From Porphyromonadaceae bacterium UBA7207 (GTDB lineage: Bacteria > Bacteroidota > Bacteroidia > Bacteroidales > Muribaculaceae), in NCBI GenBank assembly GCA_002490635.1, contig DKUJ01000022.1, positions 7,146 to 71,145 on the forward strand: a DNA stretch of 64,000 bases. Reading direction: 5' to 3'. Shown here in pieces: positions 8,445 through 56,107 of the stretch (position 1 is its first letter; the number at the start of each line of letters is the position of its first letter). The notes under the pieces were generated by a model. The model saw only the letters and a program-made list of their open reading frames with translations. It ran no database searches and was not told where the DNA came from. The position numbers and the translations under genes are program-made.

Positions 8445-9209
8445 CTATTCTTCGGCCTTTTTGCCGGCTTTGTCTATCAATATCAGTTTCCGCAGAAACC
8501 GCAATTGGTCTGCAAAGTAAGCACTTTTTTTCGGAAATTTCAAGTTTAGCGACGAAATAATATCGTAGGCACGCTGATATTTACCTTGCCTGATATAGAT
8601 TTTCGCCAGCGATTCGCTGAGCAGGGAATCGGCCGGTTCGTCAGCCGGTTTTTTCAGTGGCTTCGCCTTCGGTGCAGGCTGTGGCGCAGGCTCGGGCCGG
8701 TGATGCTGCGCCGCCGGATGCCGACTGAGAATAAAGGCATCTATACGCCCTTCGGGACTGTCGGCATCGACCGGTTCGGAAGGCAGATGTTCCTGTTCCT
8801 CGCGGGCGAGCACTTCGCCGTAGTCGGGAGTGGGATTGAATATCATGCGTTCGAGCATCGCGTCCTCCGCAGGGCTGCTGTGGCCGTAAGTCTGCAAAAA
8901 AAGGTCTATCACATTCTCTGTTGCCGGCGATTCGTTTTCCTCAGGCGGATAGAAGCCCGCAAAGTCGCCGCCTCTGGCGCTTTCTATGGCATCGGCATTG
9001 TCGGAAGCGAGCATGATTTTCATCTCCAGACTGCTGCGCTGTTCCCTGTCCAGCGACGGGCTTCGCAGCATGAGCATATCTATCGCCGTGCAGTATGGAA
9101 AAGCCTTGGATGCGCGGGCGAGGACCGCCATGTCGTCGGCCGACGGTGCCGACACGCTGCCGGCATATCTGCGCAGGATAGCGCCTGTAGTCTGTAATAA
9201 TTCTTCCAT
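8445..9209 (-). CDS. Conserved Bacteroidota protein with C-terminal TPR-like motif
   Basis: SESLAKIYIRQGKYQRAYDII..L.LKFPKKSAYFADQ, typical of the gene between lptE and secG; start at MEELL. Confidence 0.8.
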   Translation of the reverse strand: MEELLQTTGAILRRYAGSVSAPSADDMAVLARASKAFPYCTAIDMLMLRSPSLDREQRSSLEMKIMLASDNADAIESARGGDFAGFYPPEENESPATENVIDLFLQTYGHSSPAEDAMLERMIFNPTPDYGEVLAREEQEHLPSEPVDADSPEGRIDAFILSRHPAAQHHRPEPAPQPAPKAKPLKKPADEPADSLLSESLAKIYIRQGKYQRAYDIISSLNLKFPKKSAYFADQLRFLRKLILIDKAGKKAEE

Positions 9210-9211
9210 TA

Positions 9212-9739
9212 TCACCAGTCGCCCAGGGTGGAGTTGAAAATAAGATCTACAAGCTCCTTGCATATCTCCTGACAGAGACCGTCCTGCACGTCGGTGAGCA
9301 TCTCGCTGCTGGTGAAGTCCCGGTAGGCGCTGAATGTCTGGTCGAAGTCCTTGCCGTCGACTTTGGTATCTGTGTATTTCACGCGCACCGATATGGTGAG
9401 ACGTGTCATGGAGCCGTAGCCGTCTTCTGTCACCGCCTGCGGTGTGAGGTTGTAGCCGGTGATTTCGCCTTCAAGCCGGAGGTCGGAAAGGCCGTCGACA
9501 GTCTGCAGGCGTGTGTTGCGGGTTATGTAGTTCTGCAGCTCGTTCTCGAACATAGGCTGCAGGGGCGGATACACCAGTGCCGCACGAATCGGGAACTCGC
9601 TCACGGATATCGTGCGATATACATTGTAGTCGATGGATGTGCCGTTCGGCGTAAACCTTATCTTGCAGGCTCCCGCAACAACGAGAACACACAGCATTAC
9701 AAGCGCCGGCAACGTCCGGGAGTATTTATTCGAGTCCAT
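9212..9739 (-). CDS. lptE: LPS assembly lipoprotein LptE family
   Basis: Lipobox AGA-C; LRLEGEITGY...TRLTISVRVKY...LVDLIFNSTLGDW. Confidence 0.85.
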   Translation of the reverse strand: MDSNKYSRTLPALVMLCVLVVAGACKIRFTPNGTSIDYNVYRTISVSEFPIRAALVYPPLQPMFENELQNYITRNTRLQTVDGLSDLRLEGEITGYNLTPQAVTEDGYGSMTRLTISVRVKYTDTKVDGKDFDQTFSAYRDFTSSEMLTDVQDGLCQEICKELVDLIFNSTLGDW

Positions 9740-10985
9740 ATTCTTTTATTTTGCGGTATAGAGTGCGTTCCGATATCTGGAGTTCCGCGGCTGCCGCCTT
9801 ACGCTTTCCTTCGTTGCGCCGCAGAGAATCCTCTATTGCCTGTTTCTCCGTCTGCTGCATTGTGGCCGGAACGCTGCTTTCTATAGTCTCCACTTCCTCG
9901 CACACCACATCGGCACAGCTGTTGCCTATATCCTTCTCTTTTTTGTCCAATACAATGAGAGCCTTGGCCGTGTTTCCTTTTTTGTCTTCAGGGGCTACCG
10001 ACTGTTCGCTGAGCATGCGGTTGGCGGTCTCGGCATGCGGATGGCTGTCGCTGCGGCGCTGAAGCTCATCGACACGCCGCTGGAGATTCAGAATCATTCC
10101 CAGAAGCATGTCGCGCTCGCGGCTGTAGCTGTGTATGCTGTCGTCGTCGCGTGTGGCCGGCATGTATGTCTGCGATGCCGCCGGCAACGCCTCTTCCACG
10201 GTATCGGCCTCTACACGGCTTCCGGCATGGAAAAGGGCAATCTGGTCGATGATATTCTTAAGCTGTCGCACATTTCCCGGCCAGCGGTAGCGGCGCAGTA
10301 AAGCCATTGCCTCCGGCGAATAGCTCACAGGGTCCACGCGGTAGCGTTCGGCAAAATCGCTGCTGAACTTGTAGGCAAGCAGGTCTATGTCGGCACCGCG
10401 TTCGCGAAGCGGAGGCACAACTATCATCACTGTCGATAACCTGTAGAAAAGGTCTTCGCGGAACCGGCCCTCGGATATGGCTTTCGGAAGATCCACATTC
10501 GTTGCCGCCACAATCCTTACGTTTGTGCGTCGCACCTCAGAAGAGCCTACTCTGAGATACTGGCCGCTTTCGAGCACACGAAGCAGTCGGGCCTGCGTGG
10601 TAAGCGGCAACTCTGCAACCTCGTCGAGAAAGATTGTGCCACCGTCGGCTTCCTCGAAATATCCCTTGCGGGAATCGACAGCACCGGTGAAAGCGCCCTT
10701 CTCATGGCCGAAAAGTTCGGAGTCGATGGTGCCCTCTGGAATGGCACCACAGTTCACTGCTATATATTTTCCATGCTTGCGCGAACTGAAGGCATGGATG
10801 ATTTGCGGAAAGAATTCCTTGCCGGTGCCACTTTCGCCGCACACAAGCACCGACAGGTCGATTGGCGCCACCCTCACAGCCCTCTCCAGAGCTGCTGTGA
10901 GAGCCGGAGCATTGCCGACAATTCCGAAGCGCTGGCGGGCCTGCTGCACCGCAGCCGACGGACGGTTGGTTTTCTCTGTCATCAT
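9726..10985 (-). CDS. Sigma-54-dependent Fis-family activator lacking an N-terminal receiver domain
   Basis: Walker A GESGTGKE, GAFTGA loop, FLDEV, FREDLFYRL, WPGNVRQL, C-terminal HTH (ISERTLYRKIKEY). Confidence 0.95.
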   Translation of the reverse strand: MMTEKTNRPSAAVQQARQRFGIVGNAPALTAALERAVRVAPIDLSVLVCGESGTGKEFFPQIIHAFSSRKHGKYIAVNCGAIPEGTIDSELFGHEKGAFTGAVDSRKGYFEEADGGTIFLDEVAELPLTTQARLLRVLESGQYLRVGSSEVRRTNVRIVAATNVDLPKAISEGRFREDLFYRLSTVMIVVPPLRERGADIDLLAYKFSSDFAERYRVDPVSYSPEAMALLRRYRWPGNVRQLKNIIDQIALFHAGSRVEADTVEEALPAASQTYMPATRDDDSIHSYSRERDMLLGMILNLQRRVDELQRRSDSHPHAETANRMLSEQSVAPEDKKGNTAKALIVLDKKEKDIGNSCADVVCEEVETIESSVPATMQQTEKQAIEDSLRRNEGKRKAAAAELQISERTLYRKIKEYGLE

Positions 10986-10997: not shown

Positions 10998-11044
10998 CTA
11001 TTTTTTCGCCGTTCGCTGCTGTTGTTCCAGCCTGGACCTTGTGG

Positions 11045-11990
11045 TTCTGAACATGCTTTTATTCCTGTTATCTCTCCAATCATAGAAAATATAATACAAA
11101 GGAATAATAATAATAGCTGTCGATATGTATGAAATCCCGTAGGATACGATATCCGCTCATTGCTTATAAAAGACCTGTTTATTATTTTACACACTTTATC
11201 TACATTATATATTGCAGATATATAATAGATTAAGCATGTTATAAACACTATGTTGATAACGCAGATATCCTGTTGTTTGATAACGTCAAGCGTTGACAGT
11301 CCGTCTGATTGTGGTCTATAAGCAGGAAAATAACATTGATATCCATACAATAAAAAGACGACCGGAAACCTTGACTTTACAGAAACAGTGCGGCTTAATA
11401 AATGACGGCGGGATTCCAAAGTATATCTACCGAGAATTTGTCGCGTCCTTATTGACACCGGTATCATAGCCGGCCATAGCTTATGGTACGATTAGAAACC
11501 GGCGGAGATTTCTTTTCTATTCTTCCTTCATCGGGTTTCTGTCGACAGTTCCGGGTTTTCAACATGCCTTTATTATTATAGTCTTCTTTGTTTAAAAAAA
11601 ATTATTTTGAAAGAAAGACACAGGAAGAATAATAATGGCTGTTGATATGTGCGATAACTTTTTTGCTGTTTCCTTGACTTTATGGGTTATTGATGTCCGG
11701 GTTATGAATTTGCACACTTTATTGACATGCTATATTGCAGATATAATGTGTGTTGGATGTGTTATCTACATAGTGTTGATAATGTTGTGTTTTGATAATT
11801 TGATAACTTCAGGCGTTGATAAACCTATAGATTACGGTCTGTTCCGGTAGATAACCGCATTGATATCTATGTGAGAAAAAGAACAGCCATAGACTTGACT
11901 TTTCCGAAATTGTACGGCTTAGCACATAATTGTGCAATTTCAAAATATAGTTTTCAGTAACTTATTCCGGCATTATCAACAGCGGTTGTC
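11045..11990. repeat. Diverged tandem direct repeat, two units offset 523-524 bp (about 11045-11465 and 11556-11990)
   Basis: Co-linear anchors: ACACTTTAT 11191/11714; TATATTGCAGATATA 11208/11731; TGTTGATAA 11251/11774; TTTGATAAC 11276/11799; CATTGATATC 11334/11858; CTTGACTTT 11370/11894; CGGCTTA 11391/11915. Confidence 0.9.
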
Positions 11991-11995
11991 AATAA
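11045..11995. other. Candidate chromosomal replication origin (oriC): AT-rich region with DnaA-box-like cluster and DnaA-trio-like runs
   Basis: TTATCAACA at 11251(rc), 11774(rc), 11973; TTATCTACA at 11196, 11762; TTATTGACA at 11449, 11719, 11987(rc); further variants at 11118, 11556, 11640, 11814, 11846; (TAT)n/(ATA)n runs beside boxes; no credible CDS. Confidence 0.7.
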
Positions 11996-12058
11996 GTGTC
12001 AGTGAGATTTTCTCCGTTTAAAACGGACAAGATCTGTCTCACTCGGTGGTATGTAAAT

Positions 12059-12095
12059 AAAAAAGGCTGCACCGTGAATATACGGCACAGCCTTT
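12059..12095 (-). terminator. Terminator of the T9SS protein gene
   Basis: AAAGGCTG..CCGT/ACGG..CAGCCTTT stem, with a T6 tail on the minus strand. Confidence 0.75.
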
Positions 12096-12117: not shown

Positions 12118-13698
12118 TTAGCGAACGTAAACTTTGGTAACGTTGCTGCCCTGGCGGCGGATATAGATGCCGGCTTCGGGGTTGGCTACGCGCACGCCCT
12201 GGAGATTGTAGAATTCAACGGGAGCTTCATTGTCGACAGCTACGGATTCGAGGCCGCTGCCTTTTTTCACGAAGAGTGTGGGCAGGAGAACTTCAGCGGC
12301 ATTTACGCTGGGAGCGATGTTGTTGTACCATGTACCTTCAGCACCTTTGGTAACGCCTACCAGACCGGTGTTGCCTTCGGCGGTGAGGGAGATGGAAGCT
12401 TTGCCGGCGGTGAAGCTGATTGTCCAGATGCAAAGGGGGCTTACTTCGGTGTAGAGCTGGAAGGAAGTGGTGTGGGTGCCGTCGAAGCCGAGATAGCGGC
12501 CATAGGAGTCCTTCATGGTGTATCCTTCGCCTTCGGCTTTGATGGTGATGGCGTTCTTGACATCGCTGGTGAGTTCGCCGTTGGTGATGGTAACGTCGGT
12601 GAGGCTGAGGCGGCCGAATGTGGAGCTTTCGGAGATAACGGTGCCGAGCTTGTCGTTGGCTACCATTACATATTCGGCACCGGAAGCGATGGCGGCGGTT
12701 TCAACGAAGATAGCTTCGTTTACCGGAGGAATAACCACTTCGCCCTGGAGTTTGAAGAGCTCGGGTTTGGCGGCATTCTCGGGGAGCTCTTCGGGCAGGT
12801 AGCATCCGAAGGAACCGAAAGCGGGATCCTGATAGATGGAATGGCCGGTAGCGATGTTGGTGATGGTGGCCACGCCGGCATCGAAGCTTACAGTCCATAC
12901 GCGGTTGTCCGCGCTGTCGTCGGTGGTGTCGAATGTCTTGTATCCGGTTTTGGCACCAAGCATTTTTCCCTGTGCGGTCTCGATGGTGTAGCCACCCTGT
13001 ACGGCAGTGAATTTAAGGGCATAGGAAGCGTCGCCTGCAAAAGAGGTGGCTGTTGCGCCGGCGGGGAGATTGGTGGAGCTCATGTAGCCGTAGTTTTTCT
13101 CAAAGAGCATGTTGTACATGCCACCTGCTACGAATACATAGCTCTGGCCGCTTTCAACGGCTGTTGCCTTGAAGTAGTTGGGTTCGGCAGGCTCGGGGGG
13201 AGTGATTCCGCCAAGTTCGCCGCCGCCAACGATATTCATGCTGGTGAAGCAGAACTGGCCGGCTTTGGATTCACCATCGGTACCGTATGTTGCCTTTTCG
13301 CCCACGGTGAAGGTAACTTCAGCGGCGTTGCCGGTCCAGGTAACAGTCCAGTCGCCTTCGGCAGGATTGCTGATGGTAACGTTGCCGTTGCTGGCGGTAA
13401 TGTCGGTGAGGCGTTTCTTGCCCTGCTTGGAAATGTTGAACACCATGGATGTGATGTCGGCACCGCTGGTAACGGTGAGGGTGTTCTTGGCATAGAGGCG
13501 CAGGTCCTTGTTGTTTGCGTTGTATGCAGGCTTTGTGGTGCCGCCATTCTGGTCGGCAACGAACTTGAAGTCGGTACCTGCGGTGAACTCGGTAGGATTG
13601 GCACCCAGCTCGAGGTCGGCGAATGTCACTGTGGTGTCGGCCAGTGCGGAACCTGCACACAGCAGGCCGGCAGCCATGCTTAGTAAAAGTTTTTTCAT
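12118..13698 (-). CDS. Secreted protein with two internal repeat domains and T9SS C-terminal sorting domain
   Basis: Signal peptide MKKLLLSMAAGLLCAGSALA; C-terminus VEFYNLQGVRVANPEAGIYIRRQGSNVTKVYVR; repeats starting YFKATAVESGQSYVFVA and IFVETAAIASGAEYVMVA. Confidence 0.9.
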   Translation of the reverse strand: MKKLLLSMAAGLLCAGSALADTTVTFADLELGANPTEFTAGTDFKFVADQNGGTTKPAYNANNKDLRLYAKNTLTVTSGADITSMVFNISKQGKKRLTDITASNGNVTISNPAEGDWTVTWTGNAAEVTFTVGEKATYGTDGESKAGQFCFTSMNIVGGGELGGITPPEPAEPNYFKATAVESGQSYVFVAGGMYNMLFEKNYGYMSSTNLPAGATATSFAGDASYALKFTAVQGGYTIETAQGKMLGAKTGYKTFDTTDDSADNRVWTVSFDAGVATITNIATGHSIYQDPAFGSFGCYLPEELPENAAKPELFKLQGEVVIPPVNEAIFVETAAIASGAEYVMVANDKLGTVISESSTFGRLSLTDVTITNGELTSDVKNAITIKAEGEGYTMKDSYGRYLGFDGTHTTSFQLYTEVSPLCIWTISFTAGKASISLTAEGNTGLVGVTKGAEGTWYNNIAPSVNAAEVLLPTLFVKKGSGLESVAVDNEAPVEFYNLQGVRVANPEAGIYIRRQGSNVTKVYVR

Positions 13699-38352: not shown

Positions 38353-38368
38353 TGTTTCACGTGGAACA
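38353..38368. other. parS centromere-like site
   Basis: TGTTTCACGTGGAACA matches the bacterial parS consensus; it lies within a 24-bp palindrome (38349-38372) with one mismatch. Confidence 0.88.
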
Positions 38369-38377
38369 ATTGGCCGT

Positions 38378-40258
38378 TCATTTGTCGAGAATTAGCAGCA
38401 GTATGTTTATGTCGCTGGGTGATACGCCGGGGATGCGGCTGGCCGCTCCTATTGTCGCGGGCTTCTGTTCGGTGAGTTTCTGCCGGGCTTCTGTGGAAAG
38501 CGACTGCAGCGCCGAATAGTCGAAGTCGGGTCGCAGCCTTATTTCGTCGAGTCGCCGCAGCTTTTCGGCCACCGCCCGTTCGCGTTCGATGTAGCCGCTG
38601 TATTTTATAAGCACTTCGGCGGCTTCCACGGTTTCCTGACGGCGGTCGTCGGGCAGTTCCTCGATAAGAGCGTTCAGCTCGGGTATTGCCGTGGCCAGAA
38701 TCCCGAGGCCGAGCTGCGGGCGCTGCACAAGGTCGGCGAGTTTCACTCCTTGTGTGAGAGGGCTTGTCTGTTGTTGTTCCAGCAGGTGGTTCACTTCAGA
38801 TGGCCGCACGGTTCGGCTGGCGCACAATGCGAGAATGTTGTCGCGCATGCGTTGCTTTTCCAGCATCAGCTCGTAGCGGCGGCGCGATGCAAGCCCTATC
38901 TCGTAGCCCAGGGGCGTAAGGCGCATGTCGGCATCGTCCTGCCGCAGCAGGATGCGGTATTCGGCTCTCGAGGTGAACATTCGGTAAGGTTCGTCGACGC
39001 CTTTGTTTATCAGGTCGTCGATAAGTACTCCGATGTATGCTCTGTCGCGACCGAGCACCAGAGGGCTTTTCCCGGATTTGGCAAGTGCGGCGTTGGCTCC
39101 GGCGACGAGTCCCTGGCCGGCTGCCTCCTCATATCCGGTGGTGCCGTTCACCTGCCCGGCCAGGTAAAGACCCGGCACGACCTTGCTCTCCAGTGTGGGG
39201 TGAAGCTGTGTGGGGTCGAAGAAGTCGTATTCTATTGCGTATCCGGCACGGTACAGCTGGGCATTTTCGAGTCCGGGCACTGTTCTCAGAGCTTCCACCT
39301 GTATGTCGAGTGGCATCGACGATGAGAAGCCGTTGAGGTAGTACTCCTGGGTTTCCTCACCTTCGGGTTCGAGAAACAGCTGATGCTGTGTGCGGTCGGC
39401 AAAGGTTACTATCTTTGTCTCGATCGAGGGGCAATAGCGTGGGCCTATGCTTTGTATCTGCCCGTTGTATAACGGCGAGTCCGGAAGACCGCGGCGAAGC
39501 ACCTCGCAAGTGTTTTCATTGGTATATGTGATGTTGCAGGGTCGCTGGCGCAGTTCGGAGCGAACCTCCGGAAGGTAGCTGAACAGCTTGTGGCAAGGGT
39601 CGCCTTCCTGGACCGTTGTCCTGGCGAAGTCGATTGTGCGGCCGTCGATACGCACCGGCGTGCCGGTTTTCATGCGGTCGGTTCGTATGCCCAGGTCGCT
39701 GAGCTGTTCTGTCACACCATGGGCTGCGGGTTCGGATATGCGTCCGCCTTCGAAACTCTGGCGGCCGATGTGCATGAGTCCGTTGAGGAATGTTCCTGCC
39801 GTGAGCACCACGCGCGGGGCGTGGAACTCGGCGCCTTCTGAGGTGGCAACGCCGCACAGAGTGCCGTCGCCGTCGAAAAGCAGGCGGCACACATTTCCTT
39901 GCCACATGCTCAGGCCGGGAGTGTTCTCAAGCACCGAGCGCCACATGCGGGAGAATTTTTCGCGGTCCTCCTGCGCCCTGGGGCTCCACATCGCCGGACC
40001 TTTGCTGCGGTTGAGCATGCGGAACTGGATGGAACAGCGGTCGGCGATAATTCCTGTCATACCGCCGAGTGCATCAATCTCGCGGACAATCTGTCCCTTG
40101 GCGATTCCGCCGACGGCCGGATTGCAGCTCATCTGTGCAATCTTTCCCATGTCCATGGTAACAAGCAGCGTGGCTGCGCCCATTGTGGCAGCGGCATGTG
40201 CGGCCTCGCAGCCGGCATGGCCGGCGCCGACTACTATTATGTCAAAATCGAAATTCAT
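38378..40258 (-). CDS. mnmG: tRNA uridine-5-carboxymethylaminomethyl modification enzyme MnmG (GidA)
   Basis: GAGHAGCEA, MSCNPAVGGIAKG, GPRYCPSIE, GQVNGTTGYEEA, YRMFTSRAEYR. Confidence 0.98.
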   Translation of the reverse strand: MNFDFDIIVVGAGHAGCEAAHAAATMGAATLLVTMDMGKIAQMSCNPAVGGIAKGQIVREIDALGGMTGIIADRCSIQFRMLNRSKGPAMWSPRAQEDREKFSRMWRSVLENTPGLSMWQGNVCRLLFDGDGTLCGVATSEGAEFHAPRVVLTAGTFLNGLMHIGRQSFEGGRISEPAAHGVTEQLSDLGIRTDRMKTGTPVRIDGRTIDFARTTVQEGDPCHKLFSYLPEVRSELRQRPCNITYTNENTCEVLRRGLPDSPLYNGQIQSIGPRYCPSIETKIVTFADRTQHQLFLEPEGEETQEYYLNGFSSSMPLDIQVEALRTVPGLENAQLYRAGYAIEYDFFDPTQLHPTLESKVVPGLYLAGQVNGTTGYEEAAGQGLVAGANAALAKSGKSPLVLGRDRAYIGVLIDDLINKGVDEPYRMFTSRAEYRILLRQDDADMRLTPLGYEIGLASRRRYELMLEKQRMRDNILALCASRTVRPSEVNHLLEQQQTSPLTQGVKLADLVQRPQLGLGILATAIPELNALIEELPDDRRQETVEAAEVLIKYSGYIERERAVAEKLRRLDEIRLRPDFDYSALQSLSTEARQKLTEQKPATIGAASRIPGVSPSDINILLLILDK

Positions 40259-49731: not shown

Positions 49732-51348
49732 ATGTCAAATTCACCCGGACAAACAAAAGCGACAGTCAGGCAGGCTGCCAAAATGGGGGTGTTCACGCTC
49801 ATAATAATGAACATCGTGGCGGTTGTCTCGCTGCGAGGACTGCCAGCGGAAGCCGAATATGGAGTAAGCTCCGCATTCTATTATATACTTGCAGCACTTG
49901 TTTTCCTGATACCTGTATCTCTTGTGGCCGCCGAACTCGCGGCCATGTTTCCCTACCAGCAGGGCGGTATGTTCCGCTGGATAGGCGAGGCCTTCGGCGA
50001 CAAGGCCGGATTCCTGGGCATATGGCTGCAGTGGATAGAGAGCACCATCTGGTATCCTACGGTGCTGACGTTCGGTGCCGTGTCGCTTGCCTTCATAGGC
50101 ATGGACCATGTGTTCGACATGCATCTTGCAGCCAACAAGTACTACACCATCGTAGTGGTGCTGGCCATCTACTGGCTCGCTACGCTGATATCACTCAAGG
50201 GCATGGGCTGGGTCGGAAAGGTGTCCAAGATAGGCGGTCTTGTGGGCACAATCATGCCCGCCGGACTGCTGGTGGTGTGCGCTGTGATATATCTCGCCTC
50301 CGGAGGCCAGTCGCAGATGGACTGGCATGGCAACTTCATTCCCGACTTTTCCAACTTCGATAATGTTGTTCTGGCGGTATCCATTTTCTTGTTCTATGCC
50401 GGCATGGAAATGAGCGGCGTGCACGTAAGGGAAATCAAGAACCCGACAGTCAACTACCCCAAGGCAGTGATTATCGGCGCCCTCGCCACGGTTGCCATCT
50501 TCATTCTGGGCACCTATGCCCTGGGCGTAATCATTCCGGCCAAGGATATCAACCTTGTGCAGAGTCTGCTTGTGGGCTTCGACAACTATTTCACCGGGCT
50601 TCACATAAAATGGCTCTCTCCTGTTATCGCCATTGCTCTGGCATTCGGTGTGCTCGCCGGCGTGCTCACATGGGTTGCGGGACCTTCCAAAGGTGTGTTC
50701 GCTGTGGGTCAGGCAGGCTATTTGCCGAAGTTCTTCCAGCGGACCAACAAGAACGGTGTGCAGAAAAACATACTCTATGTGCAGGGCGCTATAGTCACAG
50801 TCCTTGCGTTCCTCATGGTGCTTATGCCCTCGGTGCAGAGCTTTTACCAGATACTCTCGCAGCTTACCTGCATACTCTACCTGATAGCCTATCTGCTCAT
50901 GTTCGCCGCGGCCTTGCGCCTGCGCTACAAAATGAAGGGCGCACCTCGGCCATACAGGCTCGGCAAGCGCGGCAACGGTGTGATGTGGCTCATAGCAGGT
51001 GTGGGATTCGTGGGTTCGCTTGTGGCGTTCATATTCAGCTTCTTCCCCCCGAGTCAGGTGAATATGGGATCCGATGCGGTATGGTTCACCGTACTGATTG
51101 CCGGCACCCTTGTGTTCGTTGTGCTTCCATTTATAATACTGAAGTTCAGGAAACCGTCCTGGGACTCCATGGGCAACAACTTCGTGCCTTTCAGCTGGGA
51201 CAAGACCCCCGGTGCGGCCGATCTCCGCTTGAGGGCTGCCGAAGAATTCGCCACTGAAAACGCCGACACAACCCCGGACCACGCCCAGGCATTCCTGACA
51301 TACGCCAAATCAATAGAAAAACCAGAAACGCCCGCCGGGAATAAGTAA
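49732..51348 (+). CDS. gadC: Glutamate/GABA antiporter
   Basis: VVSLRGLPAEA, FYAGME, APC-family TM pattern; operonic with gadB and glsA. Confidence 0.93.
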   Translation: MSNSPGQTKATVRQAAKMGVFTLIIMNIVAVVSLRGLPAEAEYGVSSAFYYILAALVFLIPVSLVAAELAAMFPYQQGGMFRWIGEAFGDKAGFLGIWLQWIESTIWYPTVLTFGAVSLAFIGMDHVFDMHLAANKYYTIVVVLAIYWLATLISLKGMGWVGKVSKIGGLVGTIMPAGLLVVCAVIYLASGGQSQMDWHGNFIPDFSNFDNVVLAVSIFLFYAGMEMSGVHVREIKNPTVNYPKAVIIGALATVAIFILGTYALGVIIPAKDINLVQSLLVGFDNYFTGLHIKWLSPVIAIALAFGVLAGVLTWVAGPSKGVFAVGQAGYLPKFFQRTNKNGVQKNILYVQGAIVTVLAFLMVLMPSVQSFYQILSQLTCILYLIAYLLMFAAALRLRYKMKGAPRPYRLGKRGNGVMWLIAGVGFVGSLVAFIFSFFPPSQVNMGSDAVWFTVLIAGTLVFVVLPFIILKFRKPSWDSMGNNFVPFSWDKTPGAADLRLRAAEEFATENADTTPDHAQAFLTYAKSIEKPETPAGNK

Positions 51349-51419
51349 GGCCACTCCGCATATCTGAAATCATTTTATTCCTGCCGGATTAAAGTCTTGA
51401 CCAGACAAACCGGACACAG

Positions 51420-51455
51420 AAAACCTCAGAACTGCGTGGCAGTCTGAGGTTTTTT
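51420..51455. terminator. Bidirectional terminator between gadC and ssrA
   Basis: AAAACCTCAGA-ACTGC / GCAGT-CTGAGGTTTTTT stem. Confidence 0.85.
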
Positions 51456-51477
51456 GTGTCCGAAAAAATGTTTCAAG

Positions 51478-51875
51478 TGGAGCTGGAGGGATTCGAACCC
51501 TCGTCCAAACGCGGAATCAATGAGCTTTCTACGTGCGTAGTTTCAAGTTGATTTTCGAGCTGCGCCAGGCCTGAAACTACCAAACGCAGCCTTATCCTCT
51601 AAGATTTCGGCTTCCTCCCGAGGCTTCCGGAAGCCTATTTCCGATATTCCTGCACCGCCTTGTCGATTAGTCTCGGAAAAAGGACAATCGGGCGATGTCT
51701 TGTCGCTGCAACTGTTGCGGCGATTAAGCTGATCTACTGTACTTCAATCAAGCAGCAAGAGCGTAGTTATTTTCGCCATTTAGAATTGCTGAAAGCCTGA
51801 TATTAAAGAGCATAGACTTCAAAGCTCTGCACGCTTACCCACCGCTTCTACACGCTGTCAAAACCGGTCAGCCCC
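51478..51875 (-). ncRNA. ssrA: tmRNA; tag peptide (A)GENNYALAA encoded at 51777-51748
   Basis: 5' GGGGCTGACCGGTTTTGACAG; 3' T-arm/acceptor GAGGGTTCGAATCCCTCCAGCTCCA; internal GGC GAA AAT AAC TAC GCT CTT GCT GCT TGA. Confidence 0.97.
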
Positions 51876-52012
51876 GTTTTTTTGCGCCATAATCGATGGT
51901 TGTAGTCTGCAAATATATGGATTATCCGCCAAAGAACGTGCATTTTATTGATTTTTAACTACCGGATAAATCAGCTGACATACTACTGTGAATATTAAAT
52001 CTGTTATTCCAT

Positions 52013-54085
52013 TCAGTCGGTGATCATCACCTTAGCGACTTTACCTCTGTTATTGATTATGTATAATCCGGAACGGAGAGAACCGCGCGATATCTCCATA
52101 CCTGACAGATTATATATTTTGCAGTCCGGTGGCAGCAAGTGGATTGAGGTCAGAGAAAGTGTATCCGTATCGCGGATAGTGGTTATTCCACCGGTCTGCC
52201 CTTTATGGAAGGCATGAGCCACGGTCTGCACCACATCATTTCCCGCCGAATCCTTGCATATGAATCTAAGGTCATACCATTTGTCGGCATCAAGCTTGTC
52301 ATGAGGCACTGAAACTTTGCCATATCCATCATTGATGTACTGGTTGTATTCCAGCGGCGTCCACAAATCTTTTTCATGCTCGGAAATCTGAACCAGCGGA
52401 GTGGTTCCAGGCGAATGCTCTATAATAATATGTGAATTTCGAGTTGCGTCTTGCGTCAAATTGCCCGAAGCATCCCTGAGTTGCCATCTGTAGACCTGTG
52501 AATACACGTTATCCAATGAAGTATTGTCGATCATGACCCGGAGGCTGGAAGAATAGCTGTCGGAATATGGCATTTCCACATATATGTCGTAAAGTCCGGA
52601 GACTGCATTATCATTAGATGTCCACGCTATAAAATCGAAGCTGTCGGCTCCCTCTGCTATCGTTTCTCCATTGAATCTGACAGTTATTTTAGCAGGCAAC
52701 AACAGATTGCCCAGACACGGAAACAGACACGAAGTATCGAAATAGATTAGATTTTTATCCTGCCATTCATCATAGGAAAGGCTATATGAGAAACCTACAA
52801 GCGGAGCCTCGTTATAAAACTCCATATCTTCCCTGTATTCAAGGCATAGAGGATAATCCGCGGGGAAGAAGAGTTCATAGTCATTTTCGTCGCTTCGTGT
52901 ATATGCCGGAGGTATGCACCACATGTGCCCATCGGTATCGGTATATATCCATGGCGAAGTCATTGTGCTGTACTGCCGGTCGTATTGGATGTTCCCTTCA
53001 GAATCTGTCCACTCATTGTCGGTATACGAGTAACCGCCTATGCCTGCAAATACAAAATTCCATCCGTCATCCGGGCTGCTCTGTTCCTTGAGAACCGGAG
53101 CGTTGATATACACGGGAAGGTTCCTGCTTTCGGCTTTCATGTCGAATGAATATGCCGATACAGGCATAGTCATGGTAGGTGTGCCGTTCCATACTGTCTG
53201 CGCCGTTATCCCCCCGACACTGGCATCATCTTTCTGGCCGGCAAGATTGCCGGCGAACCTCATATGAACAGGCTCATTGTATAGTTCAGCTCCGTTGTAC
53301 ATGCATCGTGAGTCATCAAAAGGACCATCCGATGTAATGAAATTGATGTATGTGGCCTTTGAATCGGCTGCCACATTATTTACCGATAAAGTCCATTTGT
53401 CGGAAAGATTGTTGACAAAAAACTCTTCATAGCAGATATTAATCATCATCCGTACCAGAGGATAGCTTCCGTCCTTGCGTTTCAGTTCCCGGTAGTACAT
53501 CATGCTGAGTTCGCCGGTTTCATCTTTAAGATTGTCGTACGGAATCTGACTGCCGTCGGGATAGAAAAACTTGCAGCTCAACTTGTTTTTGGCATCCGAC
53601 TGTGTGAACACGTAAGTCATGTCTTCCGATATTTCGATGTCTTCCGCAATCACATAGCTGTCATAGAGAAAGGTATGTTCATCGTCGGGGTCAATATTGT
53701 CGGGACGTATGTCGGAGCGCAGTATAAGGTCATATCTCCCTTTGGGCACCATCAGTTCCCAGCCGAGTCCTTCCTCAATCATGTATTCATCGGGATATGT
53801 GGCCCAGTCGCAAAAGCCGCAATAGTATTTTCCGTCGGGCTGATATACTATCACTTCTTTAGGTTCATATGTGAACCCGGCGGTAGCTTCCTCTTTTACC
53901 TCAAATTTTATTTTCACCCAGTCGGAAGAATCCTCTTCATCATCCACCCGTCCCGCCACGTTAAGATTTGCTGCAACGGGATGGATTACGCTCGTCTGCT
54001 TGCCCGAAGTAGAACCCGTGGCTTGCGTGGAACCTGTGGCCGAAGCCACAACCACAACAAATAAAAAGAACCAGAATCTCATCAT
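52013..54085 (-). CDS. Acidic secreted protein with T9SS-type C-terminal domain, unknown function
   Basis: Signal peptide; C-terminus KIYNLSGMEI...LRSGLYIIN...KVMI; -7 box TAAATTTG at 54111-54118; more AT-rich than flanks. Confidence 0.85.
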   Translation of the reverse strand: MMRFWFFLFVVVVASATGSTQATGSTSGKQTSVIHPVAANLNVAGRVDDEEDSSDWVKIKFEVKEEATAGFTYEPKEVIVYQPDGKYYCGFCDWATYPDEYMIEEGLGWELMVPKGRYDLILRSDIRPDNIDPDDEHTFLYDSYVIAEDIEISEDMTYVFTQSDAKNKLSCKFFYPDGSQIPYDNLKDETGELSMMYYRELKRKDGSYPLVRMMINICYEEFFVNNLSDKWTLSVNNVAADSKATYINFITSDGPFDDSRCMYNGAELYNEPVHMRFAGNLAGQKDDASVGGITAQTVWNGTPTMTMPVSAYSFDMKAESRNLPVYINAPVLKEQSSPDDGWNFVFAGIGGYSYTDNEWTDSEGNIQYDRQYSTMTSPWIYTDTDGHMWCIPPAYTRSDENDYELFFPADYPLCLEYREDMEFYNEAPLVGFSYSLSYDEWQDKNLIYFDTSCLFPCLGNLLLPAKITVRFNGETIAEGADSFDFIAWTSNDNAVSGLYDIYVEMPYSDSYSSSLRVMIDNTSLDNVYSQVYRWQLRDASGNLTQDATRNSHIIIEHSPGTTPLVQISEHEKDLWTPLEYNQYINDGYGKVSVPHDKLDADKWYDLRFICKDSAGNDVVQTVAHAFHKGQTGGITTIRDTDTLSLTSIHLLPPDCKIYNLSGMEISRGSLRSGLYIINNRGKVAKVMITD

Positions 54086-54250
54086 ACATATTTTTTATGT
54101 TCAACGGCGGCAAATTTATCGGGAGGGACGCGGACTTCAAAATTTACATGGGGCATAATAGGGGTACAAGGGGTGACACATGGCGTACAGGCCTGTGTGT
54201 ATGCCTGAAGCGTGTTGTCCGTTGTGGTAAAGTTGAATATATTTGTGTGT

Positions 54251-55939
54251 ATGAAAACTATAAAATTTCTGCTGTGTGTTTCGATTATGATTATTTCCGG
54301 CTGTGGCGTGCGGCCGGAATCGGATTCGCTGTATCGATGGAGGCGGATTCATCCGGCAGCAGATTCGATTGTCTTTGCGCTGGAAGATGGTTTCGTGAAT
54401 TCTGTTCCGGATTCTCTCCTTTGGCCGTTGCTCGACAGTCTGAAGAATACGACGGTAGAAAGAGATGCCGAAAATCAGCATAGAAGCAGGGTGTTGTTCT
54501 GGAAGGCGAGAATTGCCAACCGAAGAAATATAACAGGGAGGGATAGCGTGATAAGAGACCTGACAGATGCGTTGTCGCTATGCGATACGGCTACATATGA
54601 ATACGACTGTTCGCGCATTCGCTATCTGCTTGCTCTTGTGGCCGAGTGCGATCCTCTGGTAAGATTCAGGAGTCTAAAAAAACTTGACAGATATTATTAT
54701 TCTTCGGGCGATGACATGATGACAGCTTCCGTGAGAGTGGATATAGGCCATATCATGGGCGAAATAGGTTATTACGACCGCGCATTACAGTATTATAGAG
54801 AGGCTGACAGCATCTATCGACGTATAGGCATGGAACCGTATGTCAGAAAAAACACATTGAATATGGCCAACGCCTTGGTAGCTATGGGGGATAAGAATGC
54901 GGCACTGGCAATTGTCGATTCTCTTATGAATGACAAAAGTCTGTCGCTGTCGCCATCGTTTCATACCAACCTCCTGCGTGTGGCATATATGGCTTCGGAC
55001 AATGCTGATTATCTGTATGAAGCCGAACGGTATATCGACAGTATTAATCCCCGGTCGCTCGACCGGCTGCCAGTCGAGTTTTATCTGTCGCGATATTGTG
55101 CGGACACCGATGATTCCGCAGGAATGAGAACACATACACAAAGGATGGAGGAATGTTTCGATTCTGCGGCGCATGGCTTCTATTATCCGGAAATGCTTAA
55201 AATCATGGCTCTGACACACGACATATATGGCGGGCGGGACACGGCCCTGTCGTTATACAGGCAATATATTGCGGCAAATGATTCGGCCCGTCTGGTGGAA
55301 AGAGTGAAAGAAATAGCCAATGCGGAAGCCCGGAGTTCCATCCTTAAATACGAATCGGAAATGCGCCACGCGCATAAAATCAAAAGTCTGCGGTTATGGA
55401 TAATCATATTGCTGCTTTTAATACTCATTCTGGCGGTAGTGTGCATTTACATCTATAGGCAGCGCCAGCACAGGCTCACAATTGTGAGGTACGATACCGA
55501 ACTGGCGCATAACAGACGCCGCGTGGTAGCCCAGGAACTTGCCATGACAGAAAAGAACAATGTATTACAGGAGGTATTGGACAATCTGGACAGTCTTAAG
55601 GACAAAGGAATTATATCGGACAATATTTGTCATGAACTTGAGAACAGCATAAAGCTCCATCTGAGCGGACGTCAGAACTGGGATTATTTCATAACGGTGT
55701 TCAATAAGGTGTGTCCTGCATTCGTGAACACGCTGATGCTTAATCATCCTGCGTTGACAGAAGGCGACGTGCGGCTTGCGGTATATATTCGCGCGGGACT
55801 TACATCGAAACAGATTGCACAGATGCTTCTGCTGCAGCCCGACTCTGTAAAGAAAAACCGTCAGCGCCTGCGCAGGAGAATGAACCTTACATCCTCGGAG
55901 TCTCTTGAAGAAGTGTTGTACTCGATTTCCCCGACATAG
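54251..55939 (+). CDS. Membrane-spanning sensor/regulator: exported TPR-like region, TM helix, C-terminal LuxR-type HTH
   Basis: N-terminal MKTIKFLLCVSIMIISGC; TM LWIIILLLLILILAVVCIYIY; HPALTEGDVRLAVYIRAGLTSKQIAQML...SVKKNRQRLRRRM; -7 box TATATTTG at 54238-54245. Confidence 0.9.
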   Translation: MKTIKFLLCVSIMIISGCGVRPESDSLYRWRRIHPAADSIVFALEDGFVNSVPDSLLWPLLDSLKNTTVERDAENQHRSRVLFWKARIANRRNITGRDSVIRDLTDALSLCDTATYEYDCSRIRYLLALVAECDPLVRFRSLKKLDRYYYSSGDDMMTASVRVDIGHIMGEIGYYDRALQYYREADSIYRRIGMEPYVRKNTLNMANALVAMGDKNAALAIVDSLMNDKSLSLSPSFHTNLLRVAYMASDNADYLYEAERYIDSINPRSLDRLPVEFYLSRYCADTDDSAGMRTHTQRMEECFDSAAHGFYYPEMLKIMALTHDIYGGRDTALSLYRQYIAANDSARLVERVKEIANAEARSSILKYESEMRHAHKIKSLRLWIIILLLLILILAVVCIYIYRQRQHRLTIVRYDTELAHNRRRVVAQELAMTEKNNVLQEVLDNLDSLKDKGIISDNICHELENSIKLHLSGRQNWDYFITVFNKVCPAFVNTLMLNHPALTEGDVRLAVYIRAGLTSKQIAQMLLLQPDSVKKNRQRLRRRMNLTSSESLEEVLYSISPT

Positions 55940-56107
55940 ATCTGGAGTGATACATGAGCATCTCTATAGATTGGTTTTCGCCGACAATCGCGCACAATTT
56001 CCTTATAAAATTTTGGCATTGGCAAAAATTGCTTATTTTTGCTGATGGAAGTGCCGGCGAGGCATTTCAGCAATCTAATACTAACCCGCAATCAAGGAAA
56101 AGAATCT

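Follow-up and report, generated by a model that had tools for sequence, protein, structure and literature searches.

A low-GC region made of two tandem units

The 64-kb window analysed here, by which we mean the whole stretch of DNA under study (C40:7146-71145), comes from a 2.08-Mb, 55-contig, 92%-complete draft genome (G000; GC ~56%) and contains, at 11040-12007, a candidate chromosomal replication origin (oriC), referred to below as the element. It lies between a sigma-54 activator gene and the terminator of a 526-aa gene. The placement of a putative oriC in an AT-rich non-coding stretch, as put forward in the original prediction, was borne out: 11040-12000 is the lowest-GC kilobase of the window, with a GC of 0.358 compared to ~0.56. 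Genes were called with an iteratively trained codon model, which placed zero genes inside the region, and the two open reading frames (ORFs) found there look spurious, having a third-position GC content (GC3) of 0.31 and no Pfam match over the cut-off.

The region consists of two diverged tandem copies of one ~450-bp unit that are 63% identical over ~440 columns, and four direct-repeat families recur at a spacing of 522-523 bp. This tandem duplication, with a period of ~523 bp, went unmentioned in the original prediction. Unit 2 shares 50-59% identity with the corresponding units of relatives and unit 1 shares 41-50%. The features of the region are listed below; 'matrix' refers to a weight matrix built from the lineage's own boxes, and 'alignment' to an alignment of seven units from six species.

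11040-12007, no strand: whole candidate oriC region with two tandem units, bordered by the sigma-54 activator gene and the 526-aa gene's terminator
11040-11482, plus strand: putative origin unit 1, the more diverged copy (nhmmer C40:18185-18627, 274.8 bits, model positions 5-459)
11551-12007, plus strand: putative origin unit 2, the conserved copy (nhmmer C40:18696-19152, 350.8 bits)
11045-11053, plus strand: unit 1 left boundary box TTCTGAACA, degenerate; aligns with the TTnTCAACA left box kept in 7/7 sequences
11054-11101, no strand: unit 1 AT-rich putative DNA unwinding element
11102-11116, plus strand: unit 1 DnaA-trio-like run GAA TAA TAA TAA TAG
11118-11126, minus strand: unit 1 unwinding-module box ATATCGACA, plus-strand reading TGTCGATAT, 1 nt past the trios (matrix 9.4)
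11196-11204, plus strand: unit 1 DnaA box TTATCTACA inside the conserved block ACACTTTATCnACAT (alignment, matrix)
11239-11259, no strand: unit 1 inverted box pair TTATAAACA-cta-TGTTGATAA (matrix 12.0 and 15.8)
11449-11457, plus strand: unit 1 right-end box TTATTGACA (alignment, matrix)
11556-11564, plus strand: unit 2 left boundary box TTTTCAACA (matrix 14.2)
11565-11623, no strand: unit 2 AT-rich putative DNA unwinding element (…GTTTAAAAAAAATTATTTTGAAAG…), A/T tract kept in relatives
11624-11638, plus strand: unit 2 DnaA-trio-like run GAA GAA TAA TAA TGG, matching the genus consensus GAATAATAATAATGG
11640-11657, minus strand: unit 2 tandem unwinding-module boxes TGTTGATAT and GTGCGATAA in plus-strand reading (ATATCAACA, matrix 12.2)
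11719-11727, plus strand: unit 2 DnaA box TTATTGACA (matrix)
11762-11782, no strand: unit 2 inverted box pair TTATCTACA-tag-TGTTGATAA (alignment, matrix)
11814-11822, minus strand: unit 2 box TTATCAACG (matrix)
11846-11854, minus strand: unit 2 box TTATCTACC (matrix); block GCGTTGATAA conserved
11973-11995, no strand: right-end inverted pair TTATCAACA-gcggt-TGTCAATAA (matrix), corresponding to TTATCAACAnGGTTATCAACA in the genus consensus

Clustering of DnaA-box-like 9-mers

All of the 9-mers on which the original prediction was based were recovered at their positions. The sequence TTATCAACA occurs at 11251 and 11774 on the minus strand and at 11973 on the plus strand, TTATCTACA at 11196 and 11762, and TTATTGACA at 11449, 11719 and, on the minus strand, 11987; the variant boxes are ATATCGACA (11118, minus strand), ATATCAACA (11640, minus strand) and TTTTCAACA (11556). 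The two inverted pairs described earlier, at 11762-11782 with a 3-bp gap and at 11973-11995 with a 5-bp gap, are correct, and the canonical box TTATCCACA is indeed absent from the element.

These boxes are strongly concentrated. The pattern TTATC[A/T]ACA has 39 sites in the 2.08-Mb genome, five of which fall in a 956-bp stretch of the element, and every other 1-kb window holds at most one. Composition-matched Markov simulations gave an expectation of 0.047 for these five TTATCWACA sites, with a maximum of 2 in 2000 runs. Likewise, the weight matrix found 15 matches in the element against 1.4 expected (maximum of 6 in 500 simulations), all of them, over ~960 bp, within one to two mismatches of TTATCAACA. 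Unit 2 is the densest 500 bp of the genome, with 11 matrix matches compared to 5 for the runner-up. The Mackiewicz criterion, as quoted in PMC7561715, asks for at least three DnaA boxes with a mean spacing below 100 bp, and the element has such a cluster.

Across 13 homologous units, 63 TTATNNACA boxes carry CA (31), CT (10), TG (10), TA (5), AA (4), TT (2) or GA (1) at positions 5-6, and C at position 6 was found in 0/63. The previously proposed consensus TTATYDACA fits these data well, and the predicted box consensus of the lineage is TTATCAACA (TTAT[C/T][A/T/G]ACA, never C at position 6). The boxes had been termed non-canonical; they do differ from the E. coli box, but the claim is a mild one, as they are one-mismatch variants only, which standard Ori-Finder settings already accept. 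A literature search yielded nothing usable on TTATCAACA as a Bacteroidetes DnaA box.

Two further searches were set aside. The most one-mismatch matches to TTATCCACA (6 in 1 kb) were found at C28:67474-68410, which has normal GC and zero lineage-type boxes and is probably a chance cluster in coding sequence. The pattern TTATNNACANNNTGTTGATAA occurs in the genome only at the two inverted-pair places, and a scan of the genome collection matched many unrelated lineages; the match in complete Segatella copri looks like chance (local GC 0.51, 2 boxes). Within the order, TTATNNACANNNTGTTGATAA is present in 25/151 genomes versus 5 control matches, so the exact inverted pair does not mark the order as a whole.

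Predicted unwinding architecture and its conservation in relatives

In the element, an AT-rich tract is followed by 5'-TAA trios, a G-rich spacer and a box read as TGTNGATAA. The published layout runs from the box through a GC cluster and 5'-CTA… to the DNA unwinding element (DUE) (PMC7561715), and since the order seen here is its mirror image, the arrangement is the same. The trio-box junctions read GAA TAA TAA TAA TAG-C-TGTCGATAT in unit 1 and GAA GAA TAA TAA TGG-C-TGTTGATAT in unit 2, which places a box no more than 16 bp from at least three NAN trios with an AT-rich region beyond, as in a basal unwinding system. DnaA-trios are defined by a conserved central adenine (PMC8287927), and four adenines spaced 3 nt apart in the TAA run (11100, 11103, 11106 and 11109 in unit 1) are invariant in 7/7 aligned sequences. 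The box at 11118 matches TGTTGATAn of the genus consensus in position and orientation, and the second, weaker tandem box, nnCGATAAC, is kept in 6/7 sequences. By nearest-neighbour free energy, 11568-11608 in unit 2 ties for the least stable 40-mer of the window and 11076-11116 in unit 1 is the third least stable; on predicted stability, the boxes are adjoined by the kind of AT-rich element expected of an oriC.

On the opposite side of the AT-rich core, the box at 11556 is followed by TGCC and then by TTATTATTA, a mirrored trio-like run on the minus strand that may function as trios. The left box and its C-rich spacer are conserved in the alignment, and the left 'trios' are mere T-rich sequence in most relatives. 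The non-box blocks CTTG… and TTCCAAA are conserved across the genus, and TATATTGCAGATATA is common only to the two copies.

A BLAST search of 40 relatives located the unit in 11 genomes of the same genus. The aligned units follow a fixed order, which in the first half comprises the left box TTnTCAACA, a C-rich spacer, the AT-rich tract (…TTTAAAAAAAATT…), GAATAATAATAATGG and TGTTGATAn directly followed by nnCGATAAC. In the second half, ACACTTTATCnACAT is followed by the inverted pair GTTATnAACAnnGTGTTGATAAC, by TTTGATAAC…GCGTTGATAA and by the terminal TTATCAACAnGGTTATCAACA; TGTTGATAA is invariant in 7/7 sequences. An nhmmer search with the genus profile matched just the two tandem units in the genome, and this single locus also holds the only box cluster of the 92%-complete assembly. 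The same profile found full-length homologues in metagenome-assembled genomes (MAGs) labelled Porphyromonadaceae, Bacteroides and Muribaculaceae, and a weaker, less complete match in Mediterranea. The named relative closest to the element is a MAG with the label 'uncultured Porphyromonadaceae bacterium' (L127); together with the gene neighbourhood and promoter motif described below, this places the organism in the Bacteroidales. Relatives have one unit per genome wherever this was checked. In the relative G017, the unit lies between two convergent genes, encoding a GDPD-domain protein and an S41 peptidase, and hence is not the promoter region of those genes.

A partial extra trio-plus-box module (TATTAATAATGG with GCGTAGATTA/TATTGATAAG) is located ~270 nt upstream of the main unit in G019 (L013:480-640) and G042 (C13:39200-39330). 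A transposase-like ORF abuts the extra module in G019, and AT-rich, foreign-looking ORFs lie on both sides of the origin in G042. Gain of origin modules seems to recur in the genus, in G019, G042 and the present genome.

Strand asymmetry around the element

The coding strand of this genome is strongly C-rich at third positions, with a GC3 skew of ~-0.27 that reaches -0.4 to -0.5 in ribosomal-protein genes. As a result, raw GC skew reflects the orientation of genes and not replication, and origin finders would be misled by a cumulative plot of it. The orientation term was removed from the GC3 and third-position AT (AT3) skew of the called genes. What remains is a second component that runs coherently through nearly every contig and is correlated with the skew of short spacers between genes (r=0.82); divergent spacers show it too, as does one of the two classes of convergent spacer. 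Within this component, GC3 and AT3 are anticorrelated (r=-0.86), such that G goes with T. This residual, orientation-corrected component appears to be real.

Switches of the residual skew from minus to plus are rare, with just five in 1.73 Mb, and the clearest is exactly at the element. To its left, 13/13 genes on both strands are negative (pooled GC3 skew -0.18), and to its right, up to 40.7 kb, 20/24 genes are positive (pooled +0.09), while the AT3 skew passes from +0.04 to -0.21. The closest relative, G042 (C13), shows the same polarity at the element, with 21/26 genes negative on the left and 9/11 positive on the right. In G017 (C4), a uniformly positive stretch of 117 kb lies to the right of the element. 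The skew inflection that had been named as a check on the locus was therefore found, at contig scale and after orientation correction.

The polarity of the switch was calibrated on a complete Paludibacter chromosome (3.74 Mb), which has nine TTATCAACA-type boxes with their own box-spacer-trio-AT arrangement at 2,965,389. Sampling of its skew gave positive values between 2.975 Mb and, across the zero point, 0.85 Mb, and negative values between 1.0 and 2.955 Mb, so that the box cluster coincides with the global minus-to-plus switch (2.965 Mb), and dnaA is ~1.05 Mb away. The leading strand of Paludibacter is G- and T-rich and carries 55-59% of the genes. By this calibration, the polarity at the element is that of an origin. 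A calibration of the leading strand by the ribosomal-protein operon (C23) was dropped because the extreme codon bias of the operon distorts the measure. The assembly gave no match to the RNA polymerase beta-prime family PF04997, which places rpoC in the missing 8% of the genome.

dnaA, parS and the genes around the element

The dnaA gene is located on another contig, at C26:75059-76447 (L001:1120-2508), and no box cluster lies beside or upstream of it. The original prediction had pointed out that dnaA is missing from the window; this holds, but it is unremarkable, as oriC and dnaA commonly lie far apart in Bacteroidetes (PMC4755523). The element lacks the adjacency to dnaA that many phyla typically show, which is a non-defining trait. 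Domain IV of DnaA carries the signature DRTHATVIH (RTHATV) in G000 and G042, compared to RDHATVLH in Paludibacter and Mediterranea and GRDHTTVIH in B. subtilis. The equivalent E. coli residues, D433 and T435, are presumably among the base-contacting residues of domain IV (1J1V structure), and on this assumption the signature change alters two base-contacting positions. It could be hypothesised that this change co-evolved with the absence of C at box position 6. Our literature search returned nothing usable on DnaA residue contacts.

A parS site and mnmG, which had been cited as origin-proximal markers, are present in the window as claimed, 26 kb from the element. These features and those bordering the region are as follows.

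9726-10985, minus strand: sigma-54 activator gene, left flank (Pfam Sigma54_activat, E=6e-66)
12062-12095, minus strand: intrinsic terminator of the 526-aa gene, a 14-pair stem followed by a T run; right limit of the candidate region
12118-13698, minus strand: 526-aa gene, no Pfam match, right flank
38353-38368, no strand: consensus parS TGTTTCACGTGGAACA, adjoining mnmG, 26 kb from the putative origin
38378-40258, minus strand: mnmG (GIDA Pfam, E=1e-152)

The neighbours of the region are housekeeping genes, encoding a U32 peptidase, LptE, an EEP-family nuclease and a fused SecDF, and farther along the window are mnmG, YbeY, PhoH, a TonB-dependent receptor and DUF3078. No Pfam match was found for two proteins flanking the region, the 526-aa protein (12118-13698, minus strand) and a 272-aa protein (8445-9263, minus strand); similarity to the 526-aa protein in relatives' contigs is only patchy. 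A nested inverted repeat, GTGAGA…TCCGTTTAAAACGGA…TCTCAC, lies at 12002-12048, in the interval that separates the last pair of DnaA boxes from the 526-aa gene's terminator. The Bacteroidota-type -7 promoter motif (TAnnTTTG) is visible in the window, and an Rfam scan of 9-14 kb at E≤1 returned zero matches. Farther away, 51000-56000 forms a low-GC island (0.45-0.49 versus 0.56), in which the genes at 52013-54085 (minus strand) and 54212-55939 (plus strand) have atypical skew residuals; this island was probably acquired horizontally.

Evaluation of the origin assignment

A box cluster unique in the genome, a DUE-trio-box architecture, single-copy conservation in relatives and a skew switch with origin polarity together support the oriC assignment made in the original prediction. 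From these sequence features, we put at roughly 85% the probability that 11040-12007 is the DnaA-dependent chromosomal oriC of a Bacteroidales bacterium, made of two diverged tandem ~450-bp units.

Several observations weigh against this assignment. With the assembly 92% complete, the missing 8% could harbour a second cluster. The genes on either side of the unit change with each species examined, so that there is no synteny between species. The skew test was made at contig scale, since a 55-contig draft gives no global cumulative skew, and the raw GC skew returns to negative at 40 kb. Among the relatives, G017 (C4) has a 12-kb left flank of ~0, and G044 (C45) shows no switch, staying negative for 12 kb to the right. 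In G005 (C70, 244,677 bp), the skew changes sign six times in 245 kb with no switch at the element; its sign blocks of 30-50 kb suggest many recent inversions or a chimeric MAG contig. Overall, the skew of the other genomes is mixed but mostly in favour of the assignment, G005 and G044 being at most mildly negative. If standard polarity is assumed, 23/24 genes between 12.1 and 40.7 kb would meet the rightward fork head-on, and ~59% of the called genes genome-wide lie on the apparent lagging (C- and A-rich) strand, which is unusual; G017 and G042 are without this excess and have the usual weak leading-strand bias.

The same 9-mers could belong to a DnaA-box cluster that is not an origin, such as a datA/DARS-like titration or reactivation site or a DnaA-regulated promoter, with the true oriC elsewhere, perhaps in the missing 8%. 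The location of dnaA on another contig, the incompleteness of the assembly and weaker minus-to-plus switches at the ends of C23 and C35 are consistent with such a cluster. However, datA and DARS have neither an AT-rich unwinding element nor trios, whereas the region here has both, in conserved form; moreover, there is no second box cluster in 2.08 Mb and none upstream of dnaA, the strongest skew switch of the genome coincides with the element, and the homologous units are single-copy in relatives. Taken together, these features make a non-origin cluster improbable. Even less probable, in our judgement, is a duplicated AT-rich regulatory spacer in which sigma-54-activator promoters or operators, or small-RNA genes, reside and the 9-mers are the sites of another transcription factor. 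Such a spacer would leave the trios, the AT-rich element and the skew switch without explanation, and the motif that recurs is the DnaA box, in which a single position varies. The region does lie upstream of a regulator gene, contains nine sigma-70-like promoter matches against 4.1 expected and shows blocks in both copies that are unlike DnaA boxes, for example TATATTGCAGATATA and CTTGACTTT; yet the unit of G017, placed between convergent genes, is not in their promoter region, the unit is kept while the flanking genes change from species to species, and Rfam matches are lacking in the 9-14 kb scan.

We find least credible the idea that the region is the origin of a mobile replicon, such as a plasmid or phage, that has integrated and whose own Rep protein would recognise the 9-mers as iterons. 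The region does contain tandem repeats and numerous short repeats, both direct and inverted; these, the variable flanks, and the transposase-like ORF and AT-rich, foreign-looking genes beside the unit in G019 and G042 point in this direction, but no rep, integrase or mobilisation gene is found among the window neighbours (LptE, sigma-54 activator, EEP-family nuclease, SecDF). Plasmid-type iterons are direct repeats of 17-22 bp beside a rep gene; here, the repeats are 9-mers in both orientations with no rep neighbour. Furthermore, the unit occurs once per genome and keeps its internal order across MAGs whose labels span several Bacteroidales families, its motif equals the DnaA box, and the skew switch marks chromosome-scale replication, all of which argues against a mobile replicon.

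Proposed mechanism of origin unwinding

If the element is the oriC, DnaA would bind ~7-10 double-stranded boxes per unit with the consensus TTATCAACA. From the tandem boxes beside the G-rich spacer (TGTTGATAn and nnCGATAA), a filament of DnaA-ATP would grow along the neighbouring TAA-TAA-TAA trios and open the AT-rich element past them, predicted at 11565-11623 in unit 2 and at 11054-11101 in unit 1. This scheme would be that of the basal unwinding system described for B. subtilis. Opening may also be aided from the opposite strand by the second box, which faces inward from beyond the AT-rich core.

Unit 2 is probably the primary module and main firing site, because it has the higher profile score (350.8 versus 274.8 bits) and is closer to relatives (50-59% versus 41-50% identity). 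Unit 1, a lineage-specific duplicate, retains the trios, an unwinding-module box, the inverted pair and the end box, and may be either an auxiliary DnaA-loading module or a decaying duplicate. A more speculative scheme, which we consider doubtful, is that both units are working unwinding modules, forming a natural double origin 0.5 kb apart in which inward box-spacer-trio cassettes flank each AT-rich core; in that case, the RTHATV DnaA may have co-evolved with the boxes, and the copy number of origin modules may be evolving.

Implications and comparison with known systems

An oriC with one-mismatch boxes far from dnaA is already expected in this phylum by standard origin predictors. The points of note are the tandem duplication of a complete putative origin unit, the inward-facing boxes that flank the AT-rich core and the changed DnaA signature. 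The assignment would fix the replication origin for an uncultured gut or rumen-type Bacteroidales lineage, and a known origin aids growth-rate estimates from metagenome coverage, contig ordering and analyses of strand bias. It also offers a comparative picture of the Bacteroidales origin, in which the modules follow a fixed order, the trios are TAA and the TTATCAACA consensus excludes C at position 6. In addition, the tandem duplication and the altered DnaA signature provide testable leads on the co-evolution of origin and initiator. No experimental study of a Bacteroidota origin was found in the literature searched.

Among known systems, E. coli datA and DARS resemble the element in being DnaA-box clusters away from dnaA. 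They have no unwinding element and no trios and are not at a skew switch, whereas the element has all three. The box consensus of streptomycetes, TTGTCCACA, differs from that of the element and belongs to a different phylum, and to our knowledge the streptomycete oriC is not described as a tandem duplication of a whole unit. Plachetka et al. 2019 reportedly described a streptomycete oriC with two putative unwinding elements, and the element is similar in having two candidate unwinding sites in one origin region.

The bipartite origins of B. subtilis, H. pylori and C. difficile (oriC1/oriC2) also place two DnaA-box clusters close together. Their parts differ in content and flank dnaA, and only one of them has an unwinding element; in contrast, the two units here are paralogous full copies, each with its own AT-rich element and trios and no gene between them. 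The element is therefore not a bipartite oriC in the sense of two non-equivalent clusters split by dnaA.

Also similar in description is the predicted origin of Prevotella intermedia OMA14 (DoriC), a 476-bp locus with multiple DnaA boxes and a GC-skew transition, far from dnaA (PMC4755523). The two agree in phylum, unit size (~450-480 bp), multiple one-mismatch boxes, a skew transition and the location of dnaA elsewhere, as compared by description; unlike in P. intermedia, the unit is duplicated in tandem here. The basal unwinding system, which consists of DnaA boxes, DnaA-trios and an AT-rich region, was defined in B. subtilis and is predicted in 85% of 2070 origins (PMC8287927; PMC6669920). 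The element shares with it the tandem boxes, the short G/C spacer, at least three trios with a central adenine and the AT-rich element, in the same order and relative orientation. It differs in its TAA trios (3'-AAT-5'), where 3'-GAT-5' is commonest, and in its box consensus TTATCAACA; furthermore, an extra inward-facing box with a C-rich spacer lies across the AT-rich core, and the whole module occurs twice.

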